A stretch of DNA of 35,675 nt, from IMG/VR virus record IMGVR_UViG_2563366934_000005; one strand, written 5' to 3'. Positions 1,447 to 35,172 of this stretch are shown in pieces; position 1 is the first letter of the stretch; each line of letters starts with the position of its first letter. Below the pieces are notes generated by a model, which searched no databases, was not told the origin of the DNA, and saw only the letters and a list, made by a program, of their open reading frames with translations. The position numbers and the translations under genes were made by a program. The stretch is from a virus (taxonomy: Duplodnaviria; Heunggongvirae; Uroviricota; Caudoviricetes).

Positions 1447-1533
1447 GCTGAAAAACATAACCCATAAAATGCTAGCTGTACCAGGAACCACCTCCTTAGC
1501 CTGTGTAATCTCCCTTACACGGGCTTATTTTTT
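1447..1533 (+). ncRNA. cyaR: CyaR (RyeE) Hfq-dependent small RNA
   Basis: 87-nt stretch GCTGAAAAACATAACCCATAAAATGCTAGCTGTACCAGGAACCACCTCCTTAGCC... ending in a stem-loop plus U-run. It matches my recollection of E. coli CyaR in sequence and length, directly downstream of yegQ. Confidence 0.85.
1499..1533 (+). terminator. intrinsic terminator of cyaR (3' part supplied by the att core)
   Basis: 10-bp stem GCCTGTGTAA / TTACACGGGC (one G-U pair) with loop TCTCCC, followed by TTATTTTTT. Confidence 0.7.
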
Positions 1534-1534
1534 A
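1507..1534. repeat. prophage attR core (28-bp direct repeat, identical to 35173-35200)
   Basis: AATCTCCCTTACACGGGCTTATTTTTTA occurs exactly twice in the window, flanking the phage gene block. It is the reverse complement of what I recall as the P2 att core (AAAAAATAAGCCCGTGTAAGGGAGATT). Confidence 0.85.
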
Positions 1535-1934: not shown

Positions 1935-3098
1935 TCACTCATCATCTTCTGTTTCGTACTCCACATCAGAAAGCCTGACCTCAAGCTCCAGGGACGTCGT
2001 GAAGCCGCTATTATTCAGAAAATGTGTCACCTTAGTGATTGTCCAGTCCTGCTCGTCTATGACGCGCTTAAAACCTGACACTTTGACCGGCGTTTCCGTG
2101 TAAATATCTGCCCGACCAGTAGCCAGACTGATGGAGAACTCCGCTACACCCCGTTGCAGTTTATCCCACTTCGCCTGAGCGGCGCGCATGGCCTGTGCTT
2201 TCGTGGCATATACCGTGGTCAGTGCAAAAACGTTGTCAGCCTCACCGGCCATGTATTCACCTTCGCGCGCTTCCGGTACTTTTGGCGCTTTCTTCTGCGT
2301 GACTGGTTTCGCTTTCGGGTGCTCCAGTGCGCGCAGGTGTTTCTCTTTCTTTTTGCGTTTCAGTTTTACCTTCTGCTTTTGCGGCTTCGGGTCTTTGGTG
2401 TGTAACCACTTTGCCGTTACGCCTGTGTAGGCTCCGCGGTCAGCAATCGCAAAATGATGACGGTCGCCGTCGCTGCGGGTGATGGTAATCTGCGGGATTT
2501 TTTTACCGCTGGCCGTCACCCCCTGCCCCGCTTTGAGAAACAACAATTTTCCCATTTTTACCGACACCTCACCGCCGTTGCGTTCAGCAAGGCGGGTCAG
2601 GAATTTTGCATCAGACTCCTGCGACTGGTCGATGTGCGGGATTTTAATTCCGGCCAGTGACGGCGCGACACTGGCTTCCAGCCTGTTACGGGAGGCTATT
2701 GCCTCAACAATCGCACCGAGCGTGGTGTCATGCCAGGAGCCTTCACGGCGGGAATTGAGCGTCCCGCGAAAATCTGCACTCCGGGCGCGGATGGTGACCA
2801 CATCCGGCGCGCCCCGGTGTTCAACCTCATCAACGGTAAATTTCCCTTTGCATACCAGGGCAAAACCTTTCCAGCCGATATACACCGTCAGGACAGCGCC
2901 ACGAATCGGCAGCCCGACCTGCCCGTCGGCATCGTTCAGTTCAATATCAAGCTGGTCAGCCTCAAAGCCCCGGTTATCCGTCAGAGTCATGCTCATTAGA
3001 CGGTCGCTGATATTGCCGGTAATATCCCTGCTGTCGAGCATCAGCATGTAATCCGGCGTCAGCGTACTGCCTGCATCAAATGTCAGTGCATCCAGCAT
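1935..3098 (-). CDS. D: tail protein D
   Basis: 387 aa, the P2 gpD length, sitting between ogr and U as in P2. Start ATG overlaps the U stop. Confidence 0.8.
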   Translation of the reverse strand: MLDALTFDAGSTLTPDYMLMLDSRDITGNISDRLMSMTLTDNRGFEADQLDIELNDADGQVGLPIRGAVLTVYIGWKGFALVCKGKFTVDEVEHRGAPDVVTIRARSADFRGTLNSRREGSWHDTTLGAIVEAIASRNRLEASVAPSLAGIKIPHIDQSQESDAKFLTRLAERNGGEVSVKMGKLLFLKAGQGVTASGKKIPQITITRSDGDRHHFAIADRGAYTGVTAKWLHTKDPKPQKQKVKLKRKKKEKHLRALEHPKAKPVTQKKAPKVPEAREGEYMAGEADNVFALTTVYATKAQAMRAAQAKWDKLQRGVAEFSISLATGRADIYTETPVKVSGFKRVIDEQDWTITKVTHFLNNSGFTTSLELEVRLSDVEYETEDDE

Positions 3099-8600: not shown

Positions 8601-9605
8601 TTATGCTAACCATTTTGGATGCTCTTTATAAACATTATTAAACCACTCGGTCATTTCAGGTGAGTTCGTATCCTTTATCCAAGTTAACTCAAAGTCATCT
8701 CCCATAGATGCAAATATTGATTTCAATTGAGTTATGATTAAACCATAGTAAAATCCAAAAGTTTTTTCTTCATCCTCATTGACTAATGATTCAATATGAC
8801 AACTGAGAATAAATCGAACTCGTGCCGCCGTTGAGGGATGTGTCGATTGAAAATGTTCATGGGGTGATAAGCCATCAGAAAGTTTGAAGTAGCACAGTAT
8901 TAATAGCAATGAAAATGCAATTCCGCCTTCCTTGCTGCTATAAAAATCAAGCAAGTTATTAAGATAAGATACCTTCTGATCAAATGCAGACTGTACATGT
9001 TTTTTTACAATATTAAGAGCAAAACCATCTGCAACTAATTCTCTTGCGTGGCTTGATATTAGTTCTGCGCTATTGATTTTTTTATGTCCTAAAACATCAT
9101 CAAAGATAGTGTCAATAGATTGCTTTTTTGCTCGGTCGCCATGTTTATTAATGAAATGGCCTACTTCGTGACTAACTATAAACAGCATTAGACAATCAAG
9201 AATAAACATAAATAAGTGTGATTCGGACTCACTTTCCTCTCTTGTCTCATTGTTAAACCCAACAAATGGATTAGTAACGAGATGCAAGTCATAAAAGTTT
9301 AAATTAGTACTTTTCCCTGTTATCATCCCTGACCGAAAAATCAAGTCAGATAACTTACATAGTCTATCAAATGTACCATAAGACATAAATATTAATTTTT
9401 CATCATAAATAATGCCGCATTGAAAATGTGAGTTGGTTGTAATGCAAAAATCCAGATCTAATTTTCGAACAGAGTCCATGTATTTACTAAAAAACGGCAG
9501 TACGAGACCATTATCTCTATCATTTATAAAATCATAGATAAGCCCCAATTGATTCTTTGAAAGAATTTCATTGATTTCATTAAGTTTTATTTCAAATCTA
9601 TCCAT
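8601..9605 (-). CDS. cargo protein with ImmA/IrrE-like (M78-type) HExxH zinc-metallopeptidase core; function unknown
   Basis: 334-aa ORF with AAGAGG ribosome-binding site 8 nt upstream. HEVGH at residues 146-150 (nt about 9156-9170) and ELVADGFAL at 189-197, fitting the HExxH ... ExxA(N/D)xFA pattern of COG2856 peptidases. Very AT-rich relative to the phage backbone. Confidence 0.55.
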   Translation of the reverse strand: MDRFEIKLNEINEILSKNQLGLIYDFINDRDNGLVLPFFSKYMDSVRKLDLDFCITTNSHFQCGIIYDEKLIFMSYGTFDRLCKLSDLIFRSGMITGKSTNLNFYDLHLVTNPFVGFNNETREESESESHLFMFILDCLMLFIVSHEVGHFINKHGDRAKKQSIDTIFDDVLGHKKINSAELISSHARELVADGFALNIVKKHVQSAFDQKVSYLNNLLDFYSSKEGGIAFSLLLILCYFKLSDGLSPHEHFQSTHPSTAARVRFILSCHIESLVNEDEEKTFGFYYGLIITQLKSIFASMGDDFELTWIKDTNSPEMTEWFNNVYKEHPKWLA

Positions 9606-9921: not shown

Positions 9922-10773
9922 TTACATATCATTCGCTATCAATTCGGTTGAGAGAACCCTTGGAATCAAGCTACTTTTTGAACCATACTTTATATACAGA
10001 AAGTCCATCATCTTTTCAACATCACTTTCATGCTCTACAATGACATATTTAATATCCTTATGTGAAAAGGGTAACCTGTCATCATCATAATATTCGTTAT
10101 ATTTTCTCTTGCCATCTTGAGTTGATATATTTTTCGAAGCAGCGATCACTGGTTTTCCAATTGATTTTTCTATATCTGGAACAAATCGCCACTCCCTCTC
10201 ATCTGCAAAAATATAGTTAGGTTTCTCCTGACCATTGCGTCGTTTCAAAGTTGCCTGGTAATTTTTCATATATCGCAAAGGATCTACAATTTTCTTGTAA
10301 CTAAGAATCGCCGAGTCATATTTCCGCTTTGCATTAGTTAATTGAGATGTTGTTCCTGAAGATTTTATTTCGTCCAAATGCTTTAATAACTTATTAACTT
10401 CTGCTTTTAAACGCCTAATCTCTAGATTATAATTATCAAAAACAGAAGAGTGCTTGGACATGTAAATTACTGGATTAAGTCCATTTTCGTTTGCCCAATC
10501 TTTTGATAATCCTATGCCATAATGGCCATAACTTTCAGTATGCTGGGTAAGCTGTGTTAGCCTGATATCACAAAATGAAACCATCGGTATACCGAAATTT
10601 CTATTCGTGCTCTGGCCTTGTATAAACTCTCTAGCGAAAGAAATTCGAAAATAACTTGAGTCAAGTATCTCAAATAAGGTATCTAACTTTTCAGTAAAAT
10701 GAAACAAGGTCGTTGGGTATAAGCTACGCGACATAATGATCATCCATAATATGATGTATAAACTAAGTATCAT
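9922..10773 (-). CDS. hypothetical cargo protein (283-aa ORF; start may be an internal Met)
   Basis: Long AT-rich ORF at the Z/fun position. Conspicuous LFHFT...L..IL N-terminal motif and a basic coiled-coil-like middle. No clear ribosome-binding site at the first ATG; alternative starts at Met11 and Met14. Confidence 0.5.
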   Translation of the reverse strand: MILSLYIILWMIIMSRSLYPTTLFHFTEKLDTLFEILDSSYFRISFAREFIQGQSTNRNFGIPMVSFCDIRLTQLTQHTESYGHYGIGLSKDWANENGLNPVIYMSKHSSVFDNYNLEIRRLKAEVNKLLKHLDEIKSSGTTSQLTNAKRKYDSAILSYKKIVDPLRYMKNYQATLKRRNGQEKPNYIFADEREWRFVPDIEKSIGKPVIAASKNISTQDGKRKYNEYYDDDRLPFSHKDIKYVIVEHESDVEKMMDFLYIKYGSKSSLIPRVLSTELIANDM

Positions 10774-11483: not shown

Positions 11484-13732
11484 TTATACCTGCGCCACGT
11501 TATACCATGTCCCGTTAATGTATTTCTGAACCGGTCTGTAATATACACCACCAATGTTATCGGCAGAGTTTGAGCCGGTATCCTGAACAATAATGCCGGA
11601 ATATACACACCCGGACGGTGCCTGATGTGTCCATGTCATGCCATTGTTCGCAGGTTTGTATGTGGCAGCACCACCAAGCCGGATATCCCGGACATAGCGG
11701 GAATCAAAGTTACCGTAATCCGAGGGATTAACACGCCCCGTAATATTTATGGTTTTATTACTTTGAATGCTACCGGAGACAAAGCGCATAACATGGACGT
11801 TATTAGCATAAACATCCAGATTACCGTCGCCATTTTGTTTAAAGCCCGTGTCATTATCACCCAAAACAATCGAGTTACCGCCAAGAGCACTGGATGTACC
11901 GATGCCCAGTGCACCATTCAATTGACCTCCAGATAATGATAACGCCCCAACATCAGCAGCAGTCGGTTTAATGTGCGAACTGTAAATTACATATACAGTT
12001 CCATCTGTCAGGCCTGTTGGTTTATTCGCTGTATAAGTTGGTGATGTATGAATCGTTACGCTGGCGTTACTGGTATAATCCCACTGAATATTAACACCTG
12101 TGGCGTAATTACCTATTTCAACATAAACATCATAGGTATCACCGGATGTATTCACCCATGCAAAATTAGTAAATCCAACCGAGGTCCGTCGCCATAACGC
12201 ACCAGTAAGACCTTTTGGATTTCCATTTCCCGCACGAAGAACAAGTTCAGATATACCAGCCTGCATAGGGGAGTTAACATTATATCCGGCACCACCAATC
12301 AGACTTATGTAAACCACGGAACTGGCCTGTGACATGGTTACAGTTGCCAGCCTGAACCATCCTGTACCACCACTAAAAGACATGGTTGTTGAATTTGTTG
12401 CTCCAATATTGCGCAGGAATAATCTTTTATCAGGAATATCCGCGCCATTTTGATCTTTCTGAAGACGTTTTTCAGCATTGTCATAGGCAGACTTCACCGC
12501 TTTTGGTGTTGCGGCCAGCGTTTCCGAATCACTGTTGGTGGCGCTACTGAGCTGGACAAGACCTTTTCGCGCTGTGGTGGCGTCCTGTGCGGTATATTTC
12601 CCGTTAGCAAGGTCATACGCTGTCTTAACCGCCTTTGGCGTTGCAGCCAGCGTTTCAGAATCGCTGTTTGTGGCGCTACTGAGCTGGACAAGACCTTTTC
12701 GCGCTGTGGTGGCGTCCTGTGCGGTATATTTCCCGTTAGCAAGGTCATACGCTGTCTTAACCGCCTTTGGCGTTGCAGCCAGCGTTTCAGAATCGCTGTT
12801 TGTGGCGCTACTGAGCTGGACAAGACCTTTTCGCGCTGTGGTGGCATCCTGTGCGGTATATTTCCCGTTAGCGAGGTCATATGCTGCCTTTACCGCCTTT
12901 GGCGTTGCCGCAAGCGTTTCAGAATCACTGTTGGTGGCGCTACTGAGCTGGACAAGACCTTTTCGCGCTGTGGTGGCATCCTGTGCAGTGTATTTCCCGT
13001 TAGCAAGGTCATATGCTGCTTTTACCGCTTTTGGTGTTGCGGCGAGCGTTTCAGACGTGCTGTTGGTGGCACTACTGAGCTGGACAAGACCTTTTCGCGC
13101 TGTGGTAGCGTCCTGTGCGGTATATTTCCCGTTAGCCAGGTCATATCTTTCGGCGTTGCAGCCAGTGTTTCAGACGTGCTGTTGGTCGCACTGCTTAACT
13201 GAGTAAAACCTTTTGCGGTCAGCGAGGCGTCCGGGTGACGTCGTGACTGTTCATGTTCTGCAATTTTGTCATCAACGTAATCCTGCGTCGCCATCACCGT
13301 TGTGGTGTCAATGGTCAGCTCCACTGAGGTCACACTGCTGACGATGATGACCATACGGCAGGTCTGCGAACGCCCTGAGCCTTCGGCAAGAGCTGGCTTA
13401 TAACTTTCGGCCATGTTCGCCACGGCAATTAACGTTCCAGCATCATCGTACAGGCCAAGCTCACGCATCCAGAAACCGCCCACCTCCGGCGGAATAACCA
13501 GCTCTGCGATAATATAATTACTGTTTCGTTTGTCCTGGCTGATTTTGTTCAGCGCATGTCGCCAGACTTCGTGGATAAGCCCGGTCTGTCCGGCATCCGG
13601 GACAGGCAATTTACCACCGCCATCCCCGACGGCCATCGTGGTAATGTTGACCTTCCGCCCTCCCGGCGCGGTTGCCGCTGCCAGCTTTGCTGCACCGGCA
13701 GTGGTGATAACGGTTCTGAATTTTGTGCTCAT
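11484..13732 (-). pseudogene. H: tail fibre protein H, disrupted by a frameshift within its internal repeats
   Basis: The conserved H N-terminus (ORF 13022-13732) runs through the first repeat in frame (..SSATNSTSETLAATPK), then continues out of frame. The in-frame repeats and receptor-binding C-terminus (ORF 11484-12497, open upstream to about 13145) are in another frame. About 13 nt encoding AVKxA is missing at about 13146-13147 relative to the other repeat units. Confidence 0.6.
12497..13215 (-). repeat. tandem 132-bp coding repeats (about 5 units of a 44-aa tail-fibre motif)
   Basis: Near-identical units every 132 bp, starting at about 12541, 12673, 12805, 12937 and 13069. Each encodes AVKAAYDLANGKYTAQDATTARKGLVQLSSATNSDSETLAATPK. 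Confidence 0.85.
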
Positions 13733-17098: not shown

Positions 17099-17551
17099 CT
17101 AACGCTCAAGGTGAGCCAGGATAATCTCTTCAATCATCTGCACATCCTCACCGGTAAAGCCGAGCAGAGGACGCGCCGGATAATCAATTTTCTTACCGTC
17201 TTTCCGGGTTTCTTCCGACAGACCGAACTGATGCACACTGGCGATTTTCGGCGACTTCCCGCCGTAAAATTCCATTGATGCCTGTTCCGGGCTGGCGCGG
17301 ATATGCAAAAAACGACTGGTGATAAGTTTCGCAAACATTTTTCGCTTAACACGACCGGTCTTTTTTCTGGCGCTCTGCTGCTGGCGTGGCGCGTAGGGTG
17401 TGCCGTCCGGGGCTTTCTGTGCCATCACCCGACGCTGCTGACTCTGCCGCAGACGCTTCGCCAGCTCTGCACTCAGCCGCCGACGCCCTGACGGTGACAG
17501 CGACTCAATAAGTCCGGTCAGCCGGTCTTCAAAACGCTTAAACTCATTCAT
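17099..17551 (-). CDS. S: tail completion protein S
   Basis: 150 aa, the P2 gpS length. Confidence 0.8.
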   Translation of the reverse strand: MNEFKRFEDRLTGLIESLSPSGRRRLSAELAKRLRQSQQRRVMAQKAPDGTPYAPRQQQSARKKTGRVKRKMFAKLITSRFLHIRASPEQASMEFYGGKSPKIASVHQFGLSEETRKDGKKIDYPARPLLGFTGEDVQMIEEIILAHLER

Positions 17552-18011
17552 CCCACTTACTCACCAGTTCGCCATTGATATAAAGCTCCATCGGGCGGGT
17601 GACCGGCTCCGGCGGCGGGGGTTCCGGGATATTCTTCACATGCAGTGCGCCGTCGACCTCACTGACCAGCGTGCGCTCGGTCAGCATCAGGCTGATGCTG
17701 ACATCAAAGCTGCTGTCATTGTTGATGTCTGCATAAAACGTGAAGCCCTTTTTCTGGCCTTCGTCGGTGGTCATGATGTCGGGCTGATTTTCCCGCAGCC
17801 ACGCCAGTACCGGCACGATGAGCAGGTCAAAATCACCGGTAAAGTCGGTCACAATGACATTGAGCGTGTAACGCTTTTCGAATGACAACGACGCCGCCAG
17901 CGTGGAGGCAATACTCCCGTTATCCACGAATATCCGCAGCATATCGGGGTTAGTTTTCAGCACCGTGACGGCATCAGTCAGCGCCCTGCGCAGGCTGTCG
18001 GGTTTGAGCAT
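17544..18011 (-). CDS. R: tail completion protein R
   Basis: 155 aa, the P2 gpR length. Confidence 0.8.
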   Translation of the reverse strand: MLKPDSLRRALTDAVTVLKTNPDMLRIFVDNGSIASTLAASLSFEKRYTLNVIVTDFTGDFDLLIVPVLAWLRENQPDIMTTDEGQKKGFTFYADINNDSSFDVSISLMLTERTLVSEVDGALHVKNIPEPPPPEPVTRPMELYINGELVSKWDE

Positions 18012-18264
18012 CGTTTTCGTCCTGACAGTGTTTAATCATTTTTACCTGGCTGGCACAGCGTGCCAGCGCGTTCTCAAGCTGCCGGATATCAGCACTTAAA
18101 TCGCCGTTCGTCTGCGGGTCACTGCCCGGCATCGGGCAAAGGCTCACTTTCGGGCAGGCGTTGGCGACAATCACTGGCGTCGGTGCAGGCCGGGCGCTGG
18201 TGCAAGCGGCGCACAGCATCAGGCAGGTCAGCACCGTACCAGCGGCGAAAATCTTCGTTTTCAT
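17974..18264 (-). CDS. lysC: LysC, Rz1-like outer-membrane spanin lipoprotein (embedded out of frame in lysB)
   Basis: 96 aa from the ATG at 18264 (MKTKIFAAGTVLTCLMLCAAC...). Signal peptide with a lipobox Cys and a Pro-rich body. Nested in the +1 frame of lysB and overlapping the R start, as in P2. Confidence 0.65.
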   Translation of the reverse strand: MKTKIFAAGTVLTCLMLCAACTSARPAPTPVIVANACPKVSLCPMPGSDPQTNGDLSADIRQLENALARCASQVKMIKHCQDENDAQTRQPAQGAD

Positions 18265-18544
18265 TGAGTAATCTCGTGATGGTTTTCTCGCGCTGTGCTT
18301 CACGCTTCGCGGCGTTCTCCAGTTCCTGACGCAGAGCCACCTGCGCCAGCTCGTTTTTGTCTGCTCTGGTGAGGGCAACATGAAGCTGATTTTTCAGCAT
18401 GGTGATGGTCACCTGCTGTTCACTGGCGACGTTGTTCACCCTGTCCAGCGAGGCGCGCAGGCTGGCGTTTTCATGCTTCGCCAGAAACAGCCCCGCCACC
18501 GCCAGTGATAACAACACAACCAGCACAATCATCAGTTTTGACAT
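18119..18544 (-). CDS. lysB: LysB, Rz-like inner-membrane spanin
   Basis: 141 aa, the P2 LysB length. N-terminal transmembrane segment followed by a coiled coil. Confidence 0.75.
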   Translation of the reverse strand: MSKLMIVLVVLLSLAVAGLFLAKHENASLRASLDRVNNVASEQQVTITMLKNQLHVALTRADKNELAQVALRQELENAAKREAQREKTITRLLNENEDFRRWYGADLPDAVRRLHQRPACTDASDCRQRLPESEPLPDAGQ

Positions 18545-18957
18545 GGTTCCCGCCCCTCAAAACGCTGACGGCAGGCCGTACGTATCAGCCGGAAAAACAG
18601 TGACGCCACGAGATAAATCAGCGCGGTAAAAATCCATCCGGCGGCGACCAGCGAGATAAATGTCGCCACCATCACTACCAGAGCCACTGACCGCCTGCGC
18701 CACGGCACCGGCTGCAAAAACAGCGCCGTGACAATCTTCACGGCCAGCGATTCCGGCGGCAGCTCCCGCCCGTAGCGTTCCAGTACATACTCAGTGGCAT
18801 ACACGCCGATACCACCGGCAACCACACAGATAACCGTCGCCAGAATCGCCCAGGTGGCGACAAAACTGACGGCCACGCTCTGCGGGTAAATCAGGGACAG
18901 TGCCAGCATCAGCGCCAGCGACACATTCAGCATCAGTGAAAGGGATAATTTCTTCAT
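18532..18957 (-). CDS. lysA: LysA lysis-timing membrane protein
   Basis: 141 aa, the P2 LysA length; multi-pass hydrophobic protein. Confidence 0.7.
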   Translation of the reverse strand: MKKLSLSLMLNVSLALMLALSLIYPQSVAVSFVATWAILATVICVVAGGIGVYATEYVLERYGRELPPESLAVKIVTALFLQPVPWRRRSVALVVMVATFISLVAAGWIFTALIYLVASLFFRLIRTACRQRFEGREPCQN

Positions 18958-18971
18958 GGTGTTTACTCCGT

Positions 18972-19469
18972 TTAAGCCGGTACGCCGCCGGCGGTACGCC
19001 AGACGGTGACCAGTTTTTCCAGTGAATGCTCACGCTGACCGTAACCGGCTCCCGGCAGGGACGCCCAGATATTGCGACAGCGTGAAATGGCGCGCTCAAT
19101 ACGTCCCGCCAGGATGTCATCCAGCGCACCGCGTTCGCGGATCAACTGAATGGCGAGTCTGTCCTGTGACAACGGACTGAAATCCGGCAGGGCAAGCTGT
19201 TTGCGGTAGTGCGGCCAGAACAGGTAAAGCTGCTGATAGCGACCGGAGGCCGTGGACTTTTCACCGCGACGGTTAAACACCTTCGCCGGTCGGCCATGCG
19301 CGAACGGGTGGTCACTGTAGTCGGTGAAGATTTCCGGCTTTCCGTCCAGTCCGGTGACTATCACGTCATAGCCCCGGTTTTTCGTCAGCGGATGATTCGC
19401 CGTCCCTTCGGACACGGCCAGCATGTCGAGAAAGGCGGCGATATTCTGATGCGTGTTAATTACCGGCAT
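18972..19469 (-). CDS. K: endolysin K
   Basis: 165 aa, the P2 gpK length, downstream of the holin. Confidence 0.8.
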   Translation of the reverse strand: MPVINTHQNIAAFLDMLAVSEGTANHPLTKNRGYDVIVTGLDGKPEIFTDYSDHPFAHGRPAKVFNRRGEKSTASGRYQQLYLFWPHYRKQLALPDFSPLSQDRLAIQLIRERGALDDILAGRIERAISRCRNIWASLPGAGYGQREHSLEKLVTVWRTAGGVPA

Positions 19470-19750
19470 TACGGTTTCCCCCTGCCCTTAAAGCGGCGCT
19501 GAATGGCAATCTCAATCACCTGATAACCGGCGATACCCAGCATGGAGCCGATGCCGCACACCGCAGGCAGTGACAGGTCAGGAAACTGCACCAGAACAAC
19601 ACCGGCAACCATCGAGACAAAACCACCGAGCAACATGCGCCCGATAAACAGACGCGGGGTGATGGGTTCACCACCGGCAAGCACCTTGCCGACAACAATC
19701 AGCACCCCAATCATGAAAAGCGACAGGACGCTTTTTTCTTCTGCTGTCAT
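19469..19750 (-). CDS. Y: holin Y
   Basis: 93 aa, the P2 gpY length; hydrophobic transmembrane segments. Confidence 0.8.
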   Translation of the reverse strand: MTAEEKSVLSLFMIGVLIVVGKVLAGGEPITPRLFIGRMLLGGFVSMVAGVVLVQFPDLSLPAVCGIGSMLGIAGYQVIEIAIQRRFKGRGKP

Positions 19751-19753
19751 GCG

Positions 19754-19957
19754 TTACTCCCAAAGATTGACAGTTTCAGCCACGGGCGCGGTCTGAACGT
19801 CGGGCAGTTCGACGGCGGTGCCGTGTGGCAGCACCGCACCCAGTTCAGCCAGTCCCGGATTTGCGGCGAGCACGGTCTCAACCACGCCCTCAGTGCGCCC
19901 GTAATACCGGACACAAATGGCGTCGAGCGTGTCGCCCTGTAGCGCAAAGGTCTTCAT
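19754..19957 (-). CDS. X: tail protein X
   Basis: 67 aa from the ATG at 19957 (MKTFALQGDTLDAICVRYYG...), the P2 gpX length. ATGA start/stop overlap with L. Confidence 0.7.
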   Translation of the reverse strand: MKTFALQGDTLDAICVRYYGRTEGVVETVLAANPGLAELGAVLPHGTAVELPDVQTAPVAETVNLWE

Positions 19958-20466
19958 CAGATTTGACTCACGATGCAGCGCGGCTTGTCCTGGATACGCG
20001 CCACCGCCCAGCGCATATCCCGCCACAGTTCATCAATGGTGCTGTCAATGCTGTCAGCCTTCTTGTCGCCTTTCGCACTGGCATCCACACCGCGATAACG
20101 CTCATAAAGCGACGCGGTCGCCATCGCACACACGGCGCGCTCGTAGTAAAAAACTTTGATACTTTCACCGTCGATGTCGTCCGCCGGAACGTCCGCCAGA
20201 CGCGTAAAACCGGCGGCAATTTTCTGTTCGCGGTACTCGTACAGCTCCGCATTTGTTTCCGCCATGCCTGACTTGATGGCCTCACGCAGACGGGCGGGGG
20301 CGACGGTCTGCTCAAGGCGCATACGTTCCCGGACGCGCTTCGGGTCGATATCGGGAAAAAAGAACGTGTTTTTAATCACCGGCTCGTCGCCTGCCGGTTG
20401 CGGGATGACCACCGTACCCTCACCGGACACGGGAGCCTCCTTTCGCGGAATAATCAGCGTCATCAT
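19957..20466 (-). CDS. L: head completion protein L
   Basis: 169 aa from the ATG at 20466 with a GAGG ribosome-binding site, the P2 gpL length. Confidence 0.75.
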   Translation of the reverse strand: MMTLIIPRKEAPVSGEGTVVIPQPAGDEPVIKNTFFFPDIDPKRVRERMRLEQTVAPARLREAIKSGMAETNAELYEYREQKIAAGFTRLADVPADDIDGESIKVFYYERAVCAMATASLYERYRGVDASAKGDKKADSIDSTIDELWRDMRWAVARIQDKPRCIVSQI

Positions 20467-20565
20467 GACTACCTCTGAAAAGTCGGGCGGTGGACGCCAG
20501 TACAGTGTCAGGTGATTCACCCTCACTGACCGGCGTGCCGCCCTGGCGCGGGGCGCATTCGGTTG

Positions 20566-21309
20566 TTAACTGGCTTTCTTTTTCGGGCGTCCACGTTTTG
20601 CCGGTGTCACGCTCCGGATCTTACGCGGGGCGCGGGTGGCCGCTTTTGGCTGCGGCTCCGGCTTCGGTTTCAGTTCCCGCTCCAGTCGTTCAATCTCTTT
20701 TTTGACGCCTGCCTGACAGTCGAGCTGTGTCGCACGTTGCAGGTGCGCCAGCGCACCGGCGGCATCACCACCGTCACGCAGAAACAGACCGGTGATTTTG
20801 TGCAGCTTTGCGCGCACTTCATCAGGCATGTCAGCCGTGGCGGTCAGTTCAAGGGTCTCCGTCAGCAGGCGGATATCCACAGATTCACCGGCAGCGTGAG
20901 CGCGCATGGCCGCGAGTGCGACCTCCTCGGTGAACATGTACGGCGGGGTGCGGCGGTGTTTACCCGGCATGGTCAGACCGTACTTCAGGGCATAACGGGC
21001 AATCTCCAGCGCACCGGCAATATCGCCGGTATCCAGACGCCACAGCATGACCGTCATCAGAATGTCATCCTGTGCACCTTTGCCCTGCTCCAGCACGCCG
21101 TTCACCCACGGCAACCAGAACGGCAGCAGTTCGCGTTTTTTCGCGGCCTTCAGCTCTTTTGAATAAATCGCTTTCAGTGTGCGCTGGTCTGCGGCGAGCT
21201 TAACCAGCATCTGCTCATAGACAGTTGCATGTCGCAGCGGGGCGGCTTCCCGCTGCGCGGTCATCGCTGCCGAGACCCGCATCATGTGGCGCTGTGCGGG
21301 ACTCGTCAT
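20566..21309 (-). CDS. M: terminase small (endonuclease) subunit M
   Basis: 247 aa, the P2 gpM length. Confidence 0.8.
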   Translation of the reverse strand: MTSPAQRHMMRVSAAMTAQREAAPLRHATVYEQMLVKLAADQRTLKAIYSKELKAAKKRELLPFWLPWVNGVLEQGKGAQDDILMTVMLWRLDTGDIAGALEIARYALKYGLTMPGKHRRTPPYMFTEEVALAAMRAHAAGESVDIRLLTETLELTATADMPDEVRAKLHKITGLFLRDGGDAAGALAHLQRATQLDCQAGVKKEIERLERELKPKPEPQPKAATRAPRKIRSVTPAKRGRPKKKAS

Positions 21310-21312
21310 CGG

Positions 21313-22386
21313 TTACGCTCCCGGCTCTGCGGTCGCCTTAGCCGGTGTGGAGAAATCACCGACCTTAATTTTTTCCACCAGGCAACCGGCGGCGTAGTCT
21401 TCCACCACGTAATCAATGTTCATTGACTCGTAGTTCTCCACGCGGTCGAGTTTCGGGTTTTCCTCAATCACGCGGCGATGGCTGTCATCCATGTAGTAGA
21501 TGGACAGGTTTTCCAGCTTCGTGATGAGCATCGCATCCGCCGGGAAGTACGGGACGCGTACCGCTGGCAGGTTGCCGATGCGTTTCTGGCTGATGATGAC
21601 GTCAGCGGCCAGCATTTCGCTGTTGTCCTGCTCCTTGTTAACGATGGGGAAATACTTGTCCGCCAGTAGCTGACGCCCCACAATCACCACAAGGTCAGGG
21701 TCTTCCTGATACCACGGCTCAATCAGGTTGTTGGTCGCATCCATCACCAGTGCGTCAAGGCTGGCATAATCACCGCCCTTACCCACGCGGATGACCTCAG
21801 ATGTGGTGTGCCCTTCCTCGTCAGTGACCTTGCTCATCACGCGCGCCGGTGCTTCATTGCGGTATTTCTGCAGCCAGCCGACCGCCACATCCTGCAGCAT
21901 CGGATTACTGCTGCGGTCAGAGGTTTCGGCACGCTTCACGCCGTTAAAACCGGCCATGATGAAATCAAGGGACTGGCGTTTGATAATGGCGTTACGGATA
22001 CGGAGCTGGAAATCCTGATAACGCGCCCACAGGTCCAGCGTTTTGTAGCGGATATAAAAATCGAAGTTAATCTGGTCGCATTCGTACTTGTTTGACGCCA
22101 GCTTCGAGAAGTCCTTCGGCTGACGCTCGGTGCCACCGGCGGTGTCGGTGGTGCTGGCGATGGAGCCGGTGACACCAATACCAATTTTTTCCCCTTTCAT
22201 TTCGCTGACCGGCACAATGTTGATGCGGGTCAGAAAATCAGAGGACTCCTGCATGGTGTTCATCAGGGTCTGAGTGACCGACGGTTCAACGGTGAATTTT
22301 TTCGACACATCACCGGCGTCGATGCCGTTCAGTTCGGCAACACGGGACAGGTAGGCATTAAATTTAAAGCGGGTTTCCTGGCGCAT
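21313..22386 (-). CDS. N: major capsid protein N
   Basis: 357 aa, the P2 gpN length. Confidence 0.85.
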   Translation of the reverse strand: MRQETRFKFNAYLSRVAELNGIDAGDVSKKFTVEPSVTQTLMNTMQESSDFLTRINIVPVSEMKGEKIGIGVTGSIASTTDTAGGTERQPKDFSKLASNKYECDQINFDFYIRYKTLDLWARYQDFQLRIRNAIIKRQSLDFIMAGFNGVKRAETSDRSSNPMLQDVAVGWLQKYRNEAPARVMSKVTDEEGHTTSEVIRVGKGGDYASLDALVMDATNNLIEPWYQEDPDLVVIVGRQLLADKYFPIVNKEQDNSEMLAADVIISQKRIGNLPAVRVPYFPADAMLITKLENLSIYYMDDSHRRVIEENPKLDRVENYESMNIDYVVEDYAAGCLVEKIKVGDFSTPAKATAEPGA

Positions 22387-22444
22387 AGTTTTTCCTGAAA
22401 TTAAGGGTTAATCGTGAAGGTTTTCCCGGACTGACTGACGCCGG

Positions 22445-23299
22445 TCAGCAGTTCGTCATCAGGGCGTCACCGCCACCACCGGTGGCCTTGCTGCGGCGCT
22501 GCTGGGTCAGACTTTCGGTGTTGTCGAGACTGTTTTTCAGGCGGGTGAATGCCTGGCTGGTTTCATCCGCCCTGTCAGTCACCTCCTGCTTAAGTGCGGA
22601 AAAGGCGGTTTCCATCTCAGCGAGGCGCTGCTCAGTGGCGCTCAGTTTTTCCTGCACATGTTCAGCAACAGCGGTCACCGCTTCATGCACGTCATTCAGA
22701 CGGGCGTCATCGCTGGCCTGTTTGCGGCCAAAAATGGATTTCACCTTTTCGGTCAGGGCGGTGAACACGGTTTCAGGCAGGTCTTCAAATTCCAGCTCAA
22801 CGGGCGTTGCCACTGAAATAAGGTTCTCAGGGCTTAATTTGAAGCGGTTCAGGGGGTTGTGTTTTGCCGTGCGGCAGAATTCCAGGTATTCCGTACCGAG
22901 GCTTGCCGGGTCATCGGTGACGGCCAGCCCCACCAGATAACATTTGCCGGTGTTGGCAAAGTTCGGCTGAATTTCCATTGAGGTATAGACCTTCTGCGCG
23001 GCCTTGTTCATCGCGATAAGGTCATCGGTCGGGGTGATTTTCGCAAACAGCGCCCATTTGCCTTTCAGCGCCGAATCATCGTCAATCTTTTCGGCCTTCA
23101 GTTCGGCCACATCGCCATAACGCTTAAAAATACCGTCAGGCAGGATGCCGCGCAGATGTTCCAGGTTAATGCGGCAACCATAGACTCGCGGGTCAAAGGT
23201 TTCGGCCATTTCCTGAATATCCTGCGCACTGATGACACGCCCGTCACAGGTGTCACCTTCAACGCCGATACGAAAGAATTTTGAGACTTTTTTTGCCAT
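22445..23299 (-). CDS. O: capsid scaffolding protein O
   Basis: 284 aa from the ATG at 23299 (MAKKVSKFFRIGVEGD...) with an AGGA ribosome-binding site, the P2 gpO length. Confidence 0.8.
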   Translation of the reverse strand: MAKKVSKFFRIGVEGDTCDGRVISAQDIQEMAETFDPRVYGCRINLEHLRGILPDGIFKRYGDVAELKAEKIDDDSALKGKWALFAKITPTDDLIAMNKAAQKVYTSMEIQPNFANTGKCYLVGLAVTDDPASLGTEYLEFCRTAKHNPLNRFKLSPENLISVATPVELEFEDLPETVFTALTEKVKSIFGRKQASDDARLNDVHEAVTAVAEHVQEKLSATEQRLAEMETAFSALKQEVTDRADETSQAFTRLKNSLDNTESLTQQRRSKATGGGGDALMTNC

Positions 23300-23472
23300 T
23301 GTCAGGAGTCCTGAATAGTGATTAGAGGAGTCACATGTCGGCATCAGTTTCCCGACGATGCGCATCCTCCGCCATCAGTCCCGGATGGCTTATCACTGAC
23401 ACAACAGCACCTTAGCGAATCGCGGGACGCGACTCAGTAGCCTTGCCGTGTATTCATCACGGCGAGGTATTC
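23300..23472. promoter_or_regulatory. divergent late promoter region between O and P
   Basis: 173-bp intergenic region between the divergently transcribed O-N-M-L and P-Q operons. In P2 this holds two Ogr-dependent promoters. Exact elements not resolved by eye. Confidence 0.35.
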
Positions 23473-25245
23473 ATGACCATCACCACAGACACCACTCTTT
23501 TACACGACCCGCGTCGTCAGGCGGCGCTGCTGTACTGGCAGGGGTTTTCCGTGCCGCAGATTGCCGCCATGTTGCAGATGAAACGCCCGACGGTGCAGAG
23601 CTGGAAACAGCGCGACGGCTGGGACAGCGTTGCCCCCATCAGCCGTGTCGAAATGAGTCTGGAAGCGCGGCTGACCCAGCTCATCATCAAACCGCAGAAA
23701 ACCGGCGGTGACTTCAAGGAAATTGACCTGCTGGGACGCCAGATTGAACGACTGGCACGGGTAAACCGTTACAGTCAGACCGGCAACGAGGCAGACCTTA
23801 ATCCGAACGTCGCTAACCGCAACAAAGGCGGGCGGCGCAAACCGAAAAAGAATTTTTTCAGTGACGAGGCCATCGAAAAGCTGGAGCAGATTTTCTTTGA
23901 GCAGTCTTTCGAATATCAGCTGCACTGGTATCGCGCCGGGCTTGAGCACCGCATCCGCGATATCCTGAAATCCCGCCAGATTGGCGCGACGTTTTATTTT
24001 TCCCGCGAGGCGCTGCTGCGCGCCCTGAAAACCGGCCATAACCAGATTTTTCTGTCGGCCAGTAAAACGCAGGCGTATGTGTTCCGCGAATACATCATCG
24101 CCTTTGCCCGTCTGGTTGACGTTGACCTGACCGGTGACCCGATTGTCCTGGGCAATAACGGTGCAAAACTGATTTTTCTCGGCACCAACTCCAACACCGC
24201 ACAGAGCCATAACGGCGACCTGTACGTCGATGAGATTTTCTGGATCCCGAATTTTCAGGTACTGCGTAAGGTGGCATCAGGTATGGCCTCACAGAGTCAC
24301 CTGCGTTCGACCTATTTCTCCACCCCGTCCACGCTGGCGCACGACGCCTACCCGTTCTGGTCGGGTGAACTGTATAACCGGGGACGCGCCAGCGCCGCCG
24401 AACGCGTGGAAATCGACGTCAGTCATAACGCCCTTGCCGGTGGGCTTCTCTGTGCGGACGGTCAGTGGCGACAGATTGTCACCATTGAGGACGCCCTGAA
24501 AGGTGGCTGCACGCTGTTCGACATTGAGCAGCTCAAACGCGAAAACAGCGCCGACGATTTTAAAAACCTGTTCATGTGTGAATTTGTTGACGACAAGGCG
24601 TCGGTGTTCCCGTTCGAGGAGCTGCAACGCTGCATGGTCGACACGCTGGAAGAATGGGAAGACTATGCACCCTTTGCCGCCAATCCGTTCGGCTCCCGCC
24701 CGGTATGGATTGGTTACGACCCGTCACACCGTGGCGACAGCGCCGGATGCGTGGTGCTGGCACCGCCGGTGGTGGCCGGTGGCAAATTCAGAATACTTGA
24801 GCGTCACCAGTGGAAAGGCATGGACTTTGCCACCCAGGCTGAATCCATCCGCAAACTCACCGAAAAATATAACGTCGAATACATCGGTATTGATGCCACC
24901 GGCCTCGGTGTCGGCGTGTTCCAGCTCGTGCGCTCGTTCTATCCCGCCGCGCGCGACATCCGCTACACGCCGGAAATGAAAACCGCAATGGTGCTCAAGG
25001 CAAAAGACGTTATCCGCCGTGGCTGTCTGGAATATGACGTCAGCGCCACCGACATCACCAGCTCGTTTATGGCTATCCGCAAGACCATGACCAGCAGTGG
25101 ACGCAGCGCCACCTATGAGGCCAGCCGCAGCGAGGAAGCCAGCCACGCCGACCTCGCCTGGGCGACCATGCACGCCCTGTTAAATGAGCCACTCACCGCC
25201 GGTATCAGCACCCCGCTGACATCCACCATTCTGGAGTTTTACTGA
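23473..25245 (+). CDS. P: terminase large (ATPase) subunit P
   Basis: 590 aa from the ATG at 23473 (MTITTDTTLLHD...), the P2 gpP length. GAGG ribosome-binding site; TGATG overlap with Q. Confidence 0.85.
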   Translation: MTITTDTTLLHDPRRQAALLYWQGFSVPQIAAMLQMKRPTVQSWKQRDGWDSVAPISRVEMSLEARLTQLIIKPQKTGGDFKEIDLLGRQIERLARVNRYSQTGNEADLNPNVANRNKGGRRKPKKNFFSDEAIEKLEQIFFEQSFEYQLHWYRAGLEHRIRDILKSRQIGATFYFSREALLRALKTGHNQIFLSASKTQAYVFREYIIAFARLVDVDLTGDPIVLGNNGAKLIFLGTNSNTAQSHNGDLYVDEIFWIPNFQVLRKVASGMASQSHLRSTYFSTPSTLAHDAYPFWSGELYNRGRASAAERVEIDVSHNALAGGLLCADGQWRQIVTIEDALKGGCTLFDIEQLKRENSADDFKNLFMCEFVDDKASVFPFEELQRCMVDTLEEWEDYAPFAANPFGSRPVWIGYDPSHRGDSAGCVVLAPPVVAGGKFRILERHQWKGMDFATQAESIRKLTEKYNVEYIGIDATGLGVGVFQLVRSFYPAARDIRYTPEMKTAMVLKAKDVIRRGCLEYDVSATDITSSFMAIRKTMTSSGRSATYEASRSEEASHADLAWATMHALLNEPLTAGISTPLTSTILEFY

Positions 25246-26279
25246 TGAGCAAGAAAAAAGGGAAAACACCGCAACCTGCGGCAAAAAAAATGACCGCCAG
25301 CGCCCCGAAAATGGAGGCATTCACCTTTGGTGAGCCGGTGCCGGTACTCGACCGCCGTGACATTCTAGATTACGTCGAGTGCATCAGTAACGGCAGATGG
25401 TATGAGCCGCCGGTCAGCTTTACCGGTCTGGCAAAAAGCCTGCGTGCTGCCGTACATCACAGCTCACCGATTTACGTCAAACGTAATATTCTGGCCTCGA
25501 CATTTATCCCGCATCCGTGGCTTTCCCAGCAGGATTTCAGCCGCTTTGTGCTGGATTTTCTGGTGTTCGGTAATGCGTTTCTGGAAAAGCGTTACAGCAC
25601 TACCGGTAAGGTCATCAGACTGGAAACCTCACCGGCAAAATATACCCGCCGTGGCGTGGAGGAGGATGTTTACTGGTGGGTGCCGTCCTTCAACGAGCCG
25701 ACAGCCTTCGCGCCCGGTTCCGTGTTTCACCTGCTGGAGCCCGATATTAATCAGGAGCTGTACGGCCTGCCGGAATATCTCAGCGCCCTTAACTCTGCCT
25801 GGCTGAATGAATCGGCCACGCTGTTCCGCCGCAAGTATTACGAAAACGGCGCACATGCCGGATACATCATGTACGTCACCGATGCCGTGCAGGATCGCAA
25901 CGATATCGAAATGCTTCGCGAAAACATGGTGAAGTCGAAAGGCCGCAACAACTTTAAAAATCTGTTTCTCTATGCCCCGCAGGGGAAAGCCGACGGCATT
26001 AAAATTATCCCGCTCAGTGAAGTGGCAACGAAGGACGATTTTTTTAATATCAAAAAAGTCAGCGCCGCTGACCTGCTGGACGCACACCGCATCTCCTTTC
26101 AGTTGATGGGCGGCAAGCCGGAGAACGTCGGGTCACTGGGAGATATTGAGAAAGTGGCAAAGGTCTTTGTCCGCAATGAGCTTATCCCGTTACAGGACAG
26201 GATCCGCGAGATAAACGGCTGGCTCGGTCAGGAGGTCATCCGCTTTAAAAACTACTCACTGGACACTGACAACGGCTGA
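25245..26279 (+). CDS. Q: portal protein Q
   Basis: 344 aa, the P2 gpQ length, reading toward cos. Confidence 0.85.
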   Translation: MSKKKGKTPQPAAKKMTASAPKMEAFTFGEPVPVLDRRDILDYVECISNGRWYEPPVSFTGLAKSLRAAVHHSSPIYVKRNILASTFIPHPWLSQQDFSRFVLDFLVFGNAFLEKRYSTTGKVIRLETSPAKYTRRGVEEDVYWWVPSFNEPTAFAPGSVFHLLEPDINQELYGLPEYLSALNSAWLNESATLFRRKYYENGAHAGYIMYVTDAVQDRNDIEMLRENMVKSKGRNNFKNLFLYAPQGKADGIKIIPLSEVATKDDFFNIKKVSAADLLDAHRISFQLMGGKPENVGSLGDIEKVAKVFVRNELIPLQDRIREINGWLGQEVIRFKNYSLDTDNG

Positions 26280-26448: not shown

Positions 26449-26467
26449 GTGCTTTCCCCGCCTCGCC
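26449..26467. other. cos site (19-nt cohesive-end sequence)
   Basis: GTGCTTTCCCCGCCTCGCC is the reverse complement of GGCGAGGCGGGGAAAGCAC, which I recall as the P2 cohesive end. It lies between Q and the old/tin-position cargo, as in P2. Confidence 0.7.
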
Positions 26468-33090: not shown

Positions 33091-33281
33091 TTCCAGACCC
33101 TCCGGCTTTTCAGAAAGGTCAGAGCCTTTTTTAACGGACTCTGTTTTTTGGTGCGGATAATGATTCCCTTACGCCCCTTACCGTGGGTGATGGTGAAGTC
33201 AATCGCCCTGGGGCTTTCGTTACGCAATAACTGAGCAATACAACGAGGCTCATTCATACGGTTCTCCTTAACGTGGTTCAC
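33087..33281 (-). CDS. small hypothetical protein (P2 orf78 position)
   Basis: 64-aa ORF between cox and B, overlapping both. Confidence 0.45.
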   Translation of the reverse strand: MNHVKENRMNEPRCIAQLLRNESPRAIDFTITHGKGRKGIIIRTKKQSPLKKALTFLKSRRVWK

Positions 33282-33543
33282 CGAGACCTAACCACATCAA
33301 CCAGCCGTCACGAATCTCTTTAGGACGGCTTTCATAAGCCAGTTTTAGTCCGTTATTCCATGCCGGAAGGTATACCCAATATTCACCAGCACGCCCCGAT
33401 ACTGACTGAGGGTCAGTAATCTCAATAACTGGTAATTTCCCTTTCTCAATCATGCCCCTTACAGCTCTTGGAGTTTTACCAATGAGTTTTGCAAACTCCT
33501 GATAAGGCACGGCATCAGTCACGCTTACAAGCTGTCTATTCAT
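33268..33543 (-). CDS. cox: Cox excisionase / early-lytic regulator
   Basis: 91 aa, the P2 Cox length; first gene of the early operon, divergent from C. Confidence 0.75.
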   Translation of the reverse strand: MNRQLVSVTDAVPYQEFAKLIGKTPRAVRGMIEKGKLPVIEITDPQSVSGRAGEYWVYLPAWNNGLKLAYESRPKEIRDGWLMWLGLGEPR

Positions 33544-33664
33544 CTGCTACGATTCTCCCTTAGTGCTTCTAATGGCTCCTAATGGCTAATTATTGCCTAA
33601 AAGGATAACTCCAGAAGCGCAACATTTCACACTATCAGCAAGAAATTACGCAATCGGAGTAATT
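33544..33664. promoter_or_regulatory. immunity switch region (Pe/Pc promoters and operators)
   Basis: 121-bp region between cox and C. Contains a 10-bp-period direct repeat, CTAATGGCT at about 33569-33577 and 33579-33587, consistent with P2-type C repressor operators being direct repeats. Confidence 0.5.
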
Positions 33665-33964
33665 ATGTCAATAGACGTTTCGGAGAAGTTGAAGCTAATC
33701 CGTGAATCTGAAAGGTTAAACCGTAAAGAATTCAGTGAATTAACTGGTGTAGCCTACAGCTCACTTTCGAGCTATGAGAGCCGGTCAAAAAACGCTGGAG
33801 TTGAAGCCATAATGAAAGTCTTACAACATCCCAGATTTACTAAATATACTTTGTGGTTCATGACTGATCAGGTAGCTCCAGAAGCCGGGCAAATTGCGCC
33901 CGCTCTCGCACACTTTGGGCAAAACGAAACAACGTCGCCCCACTCCGGTCAAAAGACTGGTTAA
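33665..33964 (+). CDS. C: immunity repressor C
   Basis: 99 aa from the ATG at 33665 (MSIDVSEKLKLIRESERLNRKEF...) with a GGAG ribosome-binding site, the P2 C length. C-terminal ...TKYTLWFMTDQVAPEAGQIAPALAHFGQNETTSPHSGQKTG. Confidence 0.75.
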   Translation: MSIDVSEKLKLIRESERLNRKEFSELTGVAYSSLSSYESRSKNAGVEAIMKVLQHPRFTKYTLWFMTDQVAPEAGQIAPALAHFGQNETTSPHSGQKTG

Positions 33965-34079: not shown

Positions 34080-35093
34080 ATGGCAATCAAAAAACTCGAT
34101 GATGGTCGATATGAAGTGGACATCCGCCCTACTGGACGTAACGGAAAACGCATCCGTAGGAAGTTTGATAAGAAAAGCGAAGCTGTCGCTTTCGAAAAAT
34201 ACACGTTGTACAACCACCACAATAAAGAATGGCTATCAAAACCAACAGACAAACGACGTCTGTCGGAACTGACACAGATCTGGTGGGATTTAAAGGGTAA
34301 ACACGAAGAGCATGGGAAATCTAATCTTGGAAAAATTGAAATCTTCACAAAAATAACGAATGACCCATGCGCATTTCAAATCACGAAATCCCTTATCAGC
34401 CAGTACTGCGCCACCCGAAGAAGTCAGGGTATTAAACCTTCGAGTATCAATCGTGATTTAACATGTATTAGCGGCATGTTTACAGCCCTGATTGAAGCGG
34501 AGTTATTCTTTGGTGAGCACCCTATCAGAGGGACAAAGAGGCTTAAGGAGGAAAAACCAGAAACAGGCTATCTCACACAGGAAGAAATTGCCTTACTGCT
34601 TGCAGCACTTGACGGCGACAACAAAAAGATTGCGATTCTTTGCCTGAGTACAGGAGCACGTTGGGGAGAAGCAGCTCGTTTGAAAGCAGAAAATATCATC
34701 CATAACCGCGTCACGTTTGTTAAAACGAAAACAAACAAACCACGCACCGTCCCGATCTCAGAGGCTGTTGCCAAAATGATCGCGGATAACAAACGAGGTT
34801 TTTTATTCCCTGATGCTGATTACCCTCGCTTCAGAAGAACAATGAAAGCAATAAAACCGGATTTGCCAATGGGGCAAGCCACACATGCACTAAGGCACAG
34901 CTTTGCCACTCATTTCATGATTAATGGAGGAAGTATTATCACGCTACAACGGATACTAGGTCACACGCGGATTGAGCAAACTATGGTTTACGCTCATTTT
35001 GCGCCAGAGTACCTTCAGGACGCCATTTCTCTTAATCCGCTAAGAGGTGGTACTGAGGCCGAGAGTGTCCACACAGTGTCCACAGTAGAGTAA
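34080..35093 (+). CDS. int: tyrosine integrase
   Basis: 337 aa, the P2 Int length. C-terminal catalytic motifs ...HALRHSFATHF...LGHTRIEQTMVYAHF (R, H-x-x-R, Y). Adjacent to attL. Confidence 0.9.
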   Translation: MAIKKLDDGRYEVDIRPTGRNGKRIRRKFDKKSEAVAFEKYTLYNHHNKEWLSKPTDKRRLSELTQIWWDLKGKHEEHGKSNLGKIEIFTKITNDPCAFQITKSLISQYCATRRSQGIKPSSINRDLTCISGMFTALIEAELFFGEHPIRGTKRLKEEKPETGYLTQEEIALLLAALDGDNKKIAILCLSTGARWGEAARLKAENIIHNRVTFVKTKTNKPRTVPISEAVAKMIADNKRGFLFPDADYPRFRRTMKAIKPDLPMGQATHALRHSFATHFMINGGSIITLQRILGHTRIEQTMVYAHFAPEYLQDAISLNPLRGGTEAESVHTVSTVE

Positions 35094-35172
35094 CGTTTAA
35101 GGGCTTTCAGTGGTAATTTATGCCGCTCAAACCCGCATTGTACCGTTGAAAGCCCCTACTGGTGACACCCTA

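Follow-up and report, generated by a model that had tools for sequence, protein, structure and literature searches.

A P2-type temperate phage has, with a probability of about 0.96, integrated at locI of Escherichia coli, inside the terminator of the small RNA gene cyaR, by Int-mediated site-specific recombination. In the window, by which we mean the whole 35,675-nt stretch of DNA analysed, and in its comparison with P2 and E. coli genomes, we observed the sRNA gene, a 28-nt repeat at the two ends of the phage DNA, attB and attP sites rebuilt from the repeat and its flanks, a P2-like Int with a P2-like layout of recombination sites, and a cyaR gene left unchanged. The arrangement proved real; it occurs commonly in E. 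coli and has been described before, cyaR (also named ryeE) having been published as a P2 target.

The attachment core lies within the CyaR terminator

The host genes, the two cores and the DNA between and beside them are arranged as follows.

1–1362, + strand: yegQ (trhP), host gene upstream of cyaR; a 453-aa ORF, named from the annotation of matching E. coli genomes.
1447–1533, + strand: cyaR (ryeE), an sRNA gene of 87 nt; Rfam RF00112 matches at 1445–1530.
1498–1533, + strand: intrinsic terminator of CyaR, from RNA folding and a terminator scan (11 pairs and the tail TATTTTTT).
1507–1534, no strand: attR core (B-O-P junction), one copy of the exact 28-nt repeat; the P2 block 17433–24382 ends at 1507.
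1535–35172, no strand: body of the P2-type (Peduovirus) prophage, 33,638 bp, circularly permuted, with cos near 26449–26467, from nucleotide and protein matches to P2.
35173–35200, no strand: attL core (P′-O-B′ junction), the other copy of the repeat and a partial copy of the cyaR 3′ end that lacks the 5′ stem arm; the P2 block 24355–25720 ends at 35200.
35201–35250, no strand: host flank B′, very probably a decayed IHF/P-arm region of P2 type, from its alignment with 1535–1600; the same flank is present in empty sites.
35358–35675, − strand: yegR, host gene downstream of the site; a 105-aa ORF, annotated as yegR in A31, K-12 and UTI89.

The covariance model of Rfam for CyaR_RyeE (RF00112) is matched over its full length (model positions 1–85 of 85) with 100.7 bits against a gathering score of 47. 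According to the ORF list and E. coli annotation, the gene lies downstream of yegQ with both on the + strand, the position expected of CyaR, which we take to be an Hfq-dependent sRNA. Folding of the RNA from 1447–1534 reproduced the known CyaR architecture and, together with the terminator scan, placed the 5′ arm of the terminator at 1498–1508, the loop at 1509–1514, the 3′ arm at 1515–1525 and the U-run at 1526–1533, giving the 11-bp stem followed by UAUUUUUU (U-run, Hfq-binding 3′ end) of a rho-independent terminator.

The window contains exactly two copies of the 28-mer AATCTCCCTTACACGGGCTTATTTTTTA, at 1507–1534 and 35173–35200, and no further ones at up to 3 mismatches; 100 shuffles gave a chance expectation of 0 matches for such a repeat. 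On the cyaR side, the repeat starts with the final 2 nt of the terminator's 5′ arm and takes in the loop, the entire 3′ arm and the U-run, so that the claim of the preliminary description of this DNA, namely that the core forms the 3′ half of the terminator stem together with the U-run, is borne out by the RNA fold and the terminator scan. Positions 1507–1533 are the 27-nt attP/locI core of P2, annotated as attP at 24356–24382 in the P2 record, and their reverse complement equals the published locI/attP core AAAAAATAAGCCCGTGTAAGGGAGATT, as printed in PMC3931495, which cites Barreiro & Haggard-Ljungquist 1992. The ogr-proximal 28 nt should be annotated as sRNA terminator and attR alike.

The int-proximal copy had been described as partial, without the 5′ half of the stem, and this also proved correct: the sequence upstream of 35173–35200 is unrelated to that before 1507–1534, and the terminator scan detected no terminator-like hairpin at this core. 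The idea that the attL core serves as a terminator for int, with a 5′ arm supplied by the phage, was rejected on the same result.

We found the cyaR 87-mer unchanged in the lysogen analysed here, in K-12 (which carries a remnant) and in A31 and UTI89 (empty sites), and an E. ruysiae lysogen and Enterobacter hormaechei also carry the identical 87-mer. The promoter region of cyaR, a gene expected to be CRP-dependent, shows 100% identity to A31 and 1 SNP relative to K-12. As occupied, remnant and empty sites share one cyaR sequence, the gene has not been altered by integration, and the preliminary description's concern that cyaR might differ from its counterpart in prophage-free strains is settled by A31 and UTI89. 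Thus the core (1507–1534) overlaps the end of cyaR (1447–1533) while the 87-mer is the same in occupied and empty sites, as in gene-restoring integrations.

Rebuilt attB and attP sites show that the repeats are recombination junctions

We rebuilt the bacterial site from the outer flanks and one core (1200–1534 joined to 35201–35675, 810 nt) and the phage site from the inner flanks and one core (34900–35200 joined to 1535–1835, 602 nt). The rebuilt attB was found contiguous and 100% identical in the unoccupied yegQ-cyaR-yegR site of E. coli A31, where yegQ lies beside yegR, and 4563 of a set of 5426 complete E. coli genomes match it over at least 80% of its length. P2 carries the rebuilt attP as one continuous stretch (98.0% identity), as do P22H1, P22H4 and 9W (99.2–99.3%, with P22H1 at 99.3%), and the corresponding P2 stretch is annotated with the Int core, the Int P and P′ arms, the IHF and Cox sites and the terminator of ogr and the F operon. 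Comparison with the whole P2 genome showed two homology blocks that end at window positions 1507 and 35200 and whose overlap in P2 coordinates is exactly the core, 24355–24382. The repeats are recombination junctions, since a natural attB (A31) and a natural attP (P2) are both rebuilt and homology to P2 stops precisely at the borders of the core; this disposes of the other objection foreseen in the preliminary description.

These data bear on whether the repeat could be a chance or dispersed sequence and the element could have entered by transposition, or by homologous recombination with a resident remnant. Such an entry is extremely improbable, even though the host flank past the core resembles the phage P arm and recombination with ogr-D′ in K-12-type strains could in principle place a P2 genome at this position. 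The chance expectation of 0 refutes the chance reading, phage homology stops exactly at the core edges, a precise empty site exists, and the similarity in the flank (~65% identity over ~55 nt, minus 16 nt) is too little for efficient RecA recombination; moreover, the homologous-recombination route predicts duplicated ogr or D, or junctions displaced from the core, neither of which is present in the window. No observation in the window or its comparisons speaks against integration at locI. Homologous recombination of a larger chromosomal segment, as opposed to a fresh integration, could also have brought the prophage here, and the same junction structure is expected of it.

Int-mediated integration, the reading we prefer, involves sites on both sides of the core. 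Those of the P′ arm and for Cox were transferred from P2 through an ungapped alignment of 1366 nt.

1532–1565, no strand: IHF site of the P arm, predicted by its position in P2 (P2 IHF 24324–24357, mapped by ungapped alignment).
1569–1596, no strand: Int arm-type sites of the P arm (GTCCACA / GACCACA repeats), mapped from the P2 'Int P arm' at 24293–24320; the arm-site consensus of P2 is tgTGGaCa (PMC3448106).
1601–1624, − strand: terminator of the ogr transcript and the F operon, convergent with cyaR; P2 annotation 24265–24288, and a hairpin found in the scan.
35059–35085, no strand: Int arm-type sites of the P′ arm (AGTGTCCACA twice), overlapping the 3′ end of int, mapped from the P2 'Int P′ arm' at 24470–24496.
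35083–35156, no strand: predicted Cox (excisionase) binding region, mapped from the P2 Cox site at 24399–24472.

In the proposed mechanism, Int, as a heterobivalent tyrosine recombinase, would act with IHF to recombine the 27-nt core within the terminator of cyaR with attP (in the order P′ arm, Cox sites, core, IHF site, P arm), locI being the classical and preferred P2 attachment site of E. coli. The attP site carries the same 27–28 nt as the end of cyaR, from the 2 nt of the 5′ arm through the loop and the 3′ arm to the U-run. Because the core holds cyaR from the terminator loop onward, cyaR is rebuilt at attR, and recombination in the core leaves a complete, sequence-identical gene there and a non-functional partial copy at attL. 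Excision would also require Cox, together with Int and IHF. The cyaR transcript would end within the core, and the ogr/F-operon terminator, which faces cyaR from the − strand, should block antisense late transcription into it. Integration by Int and IHF, and excision by Cox, Int and IHF, are taken from established P2 biology and would operate here by analogy; on the same footing, we infer that CyaR expression and termination are unaffected by the prophage.

Origin of the core on the cyaR side

The attR and attL cores are identical, and for this reason neither the phage or bacterial origin of individual bases nor the phage share of the cyaR-side core can be read from them. The statement of the preliminary description that the 3′ end of the sRNA comes from the phage therefore goes beyond the sequence, but for the part of the cyaR-side core distal to the crossover it is a reasonable expectation. 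Tyrosine integrases exchange strands at an overlap of 6–8 bp flanked by inverted core-type sites, and the sole inverted symmetry that we noticed in the core, reading by eye, is CCC-TTACAC-GGG in its middle; a crossover at TTACAC would make about 1522–1534 phage-derived. Identical cores permit any crossover position, including one at the extreme right, in which case the cyaR-side core with its 3′ arm and U-run would be wholly bacterial and the phage would add nothing to the sRNA. We consider this unlikely, as the overlap rule of the integrase family and the central symmetry favour an exchange in the middle of the core; the K-12 deletion junction, which also falls in TACAC, is suggestive only.

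The difference in T-run length between the two core copies of K-12, six Ts against seven, was also tried as a crossover marker and was rejected, the seventh T lying outside the 27-nt identity, where it is the first base of B′.

A P2-type prophage with different immunity and cargo

The phage genes that bear on the junctions and on the state of the element are these.

1635–1853, − strand: ogr, late-gene activator; 72/72 aa identical to P2 Ogr.
1935–3098, − strand: gene D (tail), 387 aa, 98.7% identical to P2 gpD.
11484–13732, − strand: tail-fibre gene H, in which a net deletion of 13 nt within a repeat array shifts the frame near 13147.
34080–35093, + strand: int, tyrosine integrase; 337/337 aa identical to P2 Int.

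At the nucleotide level, identity to P2 and its relatives is ~96% across 81–86% of a queried 23.5-kb stretch (1535–25000). We searched the window with all 42 P2 proteins by tblastn, and the matches are collinear with the window in the order Q P O N M L X Y K R S V W J I H G FI FII E T U D ogr / int C cox B A. Full-length matches with 92–100% amino-acid identity were obtained for Q, P, O, N, M, L, X, Y, K, lysA/B/C, R, S and orf30, and likewise for V, W, J, I, FI, FII, E, T, U, D, B, orf78-83 and A, with G at 75% identity to P2 G; all essential P2 proteins are matched over their full length, except H. As the preliminary description had stated, ogr and D adjoin cyaR, and int lies at the far end beside the partial copy of the core; by P2 convention, attR is the ogr side and attL the int side.

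The immunity region (33268–33964) encodes a repressor C with 65% and a Cox with 84% amino-acid identity to P2. With C at only 65% and Cox at 84%, immunity therefore differs from that of P2, and the element is, judged by its sequence, a heteroimmune phage that carries P2's integration module (Int 100% at the amino-acid level, attP region 98% at the nucleotide level).

Additionally, tblastn with the P2 proteins gave no match in the window for fun(Z), orf91, tin or old. The slot of fun(Z) in P2 (8601–10773 in the window) holds an AbiGi-family gene at 9922–10773 (PADLOC 1.9e-41, Pfam PF10899) and, next to it, a 334-aa ORF at 8601–9605 with a weak Peptidase_M48 match alone; the two are possibly an AbiG-like two-gene abortive-infection pair. 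The tin/old slot of P2 (26783–28999) holds a gene for a 738-aa AAA_13 ATPase that matches the PADLOC candidate defence family PDC-S06 (1.2e-254). The variable slots of P2-like genomes are the Z region and the TO region (PMC3091744), and these are the slots that the AbiGi-type and PDC-S06/AAA_13 cargo occupy. Defence-type cargo in known P2 variable slots gives this part of the window its annotation value.

The tail-fibre gene H is frameshifted as assembled

Gene H contains an array of six tandem repeats of 132 bp (44 aa) at 12480–13214, against two in P2 H. The lesion lies near 13147 in the first unit, which reads AAAG-A-TATGACC here and AAAG-CGGTAAAGGCCGCG-TATGACC in P2 and in the other units. 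As assembled, H consists of a 236-aa ORF and an open frame of 561 aa: residues 1–195 match P2 gpH, the frame then changes inside the repeat array, and the C-terminal 561 codons are open in another frame, with an ending that resembles P2 gpH. The 13-nt deletion was shared by none of the 5426 complete E. coli genomes, in which the best full-length matches spanned 274 nt as compared with 261 here, and it reflects either an inactivating change private to this DNA or a misassembly of the repeat.

Of the claim that this is the intact prophage corresponding to the K-12 remnant, the shared site and orientation and the presence of a whole element stand, whereas 'intact' does not, H being frameshifted as assembled with the other essential genes at full length. 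A defective (cryptic) element that is becoming a remnant of the K-12 ogrK-D′ kind, and not an intact, excisable, infectious phage, is a possibility that we rate as less likely than not. It would fit the splitting of H by the net 13-nt deletion and the private nature of this deletion (0/5426), but the remaining essential P2 genes have their full length, Int matches P2 Int at 100%, Cox is retained (84%) and the two att sites are without a flaw. Also, the lesion sits in a six-copy array of 132-bp tandem repeats, where assembly errors are frequent, and H is not required for integration or excision. Given the frameshift as assembled, the element may no longer yield infectious particles; the frameshift bears on the word 'intact', not on membership of the P2 group.

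The K-12 remnant and the frequency of the junctions

In K-12 (EMG2), the order is yegQ, cyaR, ogrK, a fragment of a D pseudogene and yegR, in the orientation seen in the window, in agreement with the claim that K-12 carries a P2 remnant (the ogrK-D′ fragment between cyaR and yegR) at this locus. The cyaR-side junction of K-12, comprising core, P arm and ogr, matches the window with 98.5% identity over query positions 1300–1700. At the far end, D is joined via a shared TACAC into the right part of a second core (...GCTACA|CGGGCTTATTTTTTT-ATGCATAAG...), and this second core copy is followed by the same flank as in the window from 35201 onward. With the same cyaR side and with D fused into the second core, the K-12 remnant therefore reads as such a prophage that has lost everything between a point within D and a point within the attL core.

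At the EMG2 fusion (locus L001 4836–4870), GCTACAC of D runs into the middle of the attL core (TTACAC|GGGCTTATTTTTTT), so that the deletion ends within the core, perhaps in the region of the Int crossover.

Among the 5426 complete E. coli genomes, the junction between cyaR and ogr was present in 1165 and the junction of int, core and flank in 820 (~15%), a gap that is consistent with remnant-type sites. About 1 in 7 complete E. coli genomes has the same junction as the window.

In Kluyvera intermedia and E. ruysiae, too, the cyaR core holds a P2-like prophage, and another is found at cyaR in a genome labelled E. coli ECDA1023. The cyaR of the latter is Kluyvera-like, and the genome may be mislabelled.

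A probable P-arm relic in the host flank

Weaker similarity extends past both cores, between 1535–1600 and 35201–35250. The nominally bacterial flank at 35201–35250 aligns with phage positions 1535–1600, which hold the IHF and Int P-arm sites, with an exact match of CATTGACCACATCGA and the need for a 16-nt gap. We scanned for the 27-nt core in one genome per species and obtained 21 loci. The flank in Escherichia sp. MOD1-EC7003 (locus L027 545–660) keeps the 16 nt and is identical to the phage arm at 49 of 72 positions in an ungapped alignment, while none of 100,000 shuffles exceeded 37. In BLAST comparisons, core and flank of MOD1-EC7003 matched P2 24293–24382 (IHF, two Int sites and attP) with 78.3% identity (E = 3e-9) and P22H4 with 80.2% (E = 1e-13). 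The flank of E. coli and Shigella has a 16-nt deletion relative to the phage arm. One arm-type repeat (TGACCACAT, which follows on the other strand the P2 Int arm-site consensus tgTGGaCa of PMC3448106) is intact in the flank and the second is decayed. Similarity to the P arm was absent from empty cyaR sites with an identical core in Kluyvera spp. and Enterobacter hormaechei, where the flanks are unrelated, and the attL flank of the E. ruysiae lysogen is also unrelated to the phage P arm.

From these alignments, the 50–70 nt that adjoin the 3′ end of cyaR in E. coli, in Shigella and in one cryptic lineage of Escherichia very probably descend from the P arm of an ancient prophage of P2 type. Read most simply, this flank would be a relic that a much older prophage left behind and that has been reduced further than the K-12 remnant. 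Our overall reading, which we favour with some reserve, is that the 'empty' locI of Escherichia is a fossil attR and not a naive attB. If true, the 3′ flank of cyaR has been shaped by phage since before E. coli diversified. It seems improbable that the surviving arm site influences Int binding at attB or attL and so the strong preference of P2 for locI; the relic bears only on the evolution of the attB site and possibly on site preference. In the literature searched, we did not find the origin or function of a P-arm relic in the Escherichia attB flank described, and the relic is possibly an undescribed, minor addition to what is known of this locus.

We also considered a second partial core at 35246–35255 (AATCTCCCTT) as the trace of an older attL and rejected it, since the motif is not conserved in other strains (AATCCTCCTT, ATCCCCCTT, ATTCCCCCTT). 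It can also be aligned to the left arm of the phage's ogr terminator and is more likely a further relic or chance.

Between this flank and yegR, positions 35262–35296 form a perfect 11-bp hairpin (AGCACGATGCC...GGCATCGTGCT) that has no T-run and is conserved in E. coli and Shigella. Strains of the UTI89 type have an extra insertion of ~170 bp between the cyaR flank and yegR (locus L004 1988–2155), which is absent from the window, A31 and K-12.

Comparison with known P2 insertions and other RNA-gene targets

The window provides a clean, textbook-quality case of an sRNA terminator used as an att site with the gene unharmed, and it introduces no new principle. Its closest counterpart is P2 at locI of E. 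coli C (Barreiro & Haggard-Ljungquist 1992, cited in PMC3931495 and PMC3091744), with which it shares the 27-nt core, Int, the layout of arm, IHF and Cox sites, the gene order and the orientation. It differs from P2 in C (65%) and Cox (84%), in the replacement of fun(Z), tin, old and orf91 by AbiGi-like and PDC-S06/AAA_13 genes, and in H, which has six 44-aa repeats and not two, another C-terminal part and the frameshift.

The locI core and the K-12 remnant date back to Barreiro & Haggard-Ljungquist 1992, as cited in PMC3091744 and PMC3931495. The K-12 ogrK-yegZ (ogr-D′) remnant has the site, the orientation and the attR junction in common with the window, but keeps ogr and the C-terminal part of D alone, whereas the window holds a whole prophage. 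Insertions in 'cyaR RNA' have been listed for Wphi2 (P2) in strain W, 'ogr-D′' in K-12 and P2*B in strain B (Archer et al. 2011, PMC3032704 Table 2); Wphi2 and P2*B share the target and the phage type with the element described here and differ in strain. Similarly, ryeE of E. coli is named as a previously known phage target by Bobay et al. 2013 (PMC3603311), citing Wassarman et al. 2001.

Integration at the 3′ end of RNA genes is also known for phage 186 at tRNA-Ile and for Fels-2/SopEPhi at ssrA (PMC3448106), and other sRNA targets are ryeB in Salmonella and rybB in E. coli (PMC3603311, PMC3032704). In these tRNA, tmRNA and sRNA integrations, as in the window, the core repeats the 3′ portion of a structured RNA gene, which therefore remains whole after insertion. 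In contrast to the tRNA and tmRNA cases, the target here is the terminator of an Hfq-dependent sRNA, which is not tRNA-like, and the core is only 27–28 nt long.
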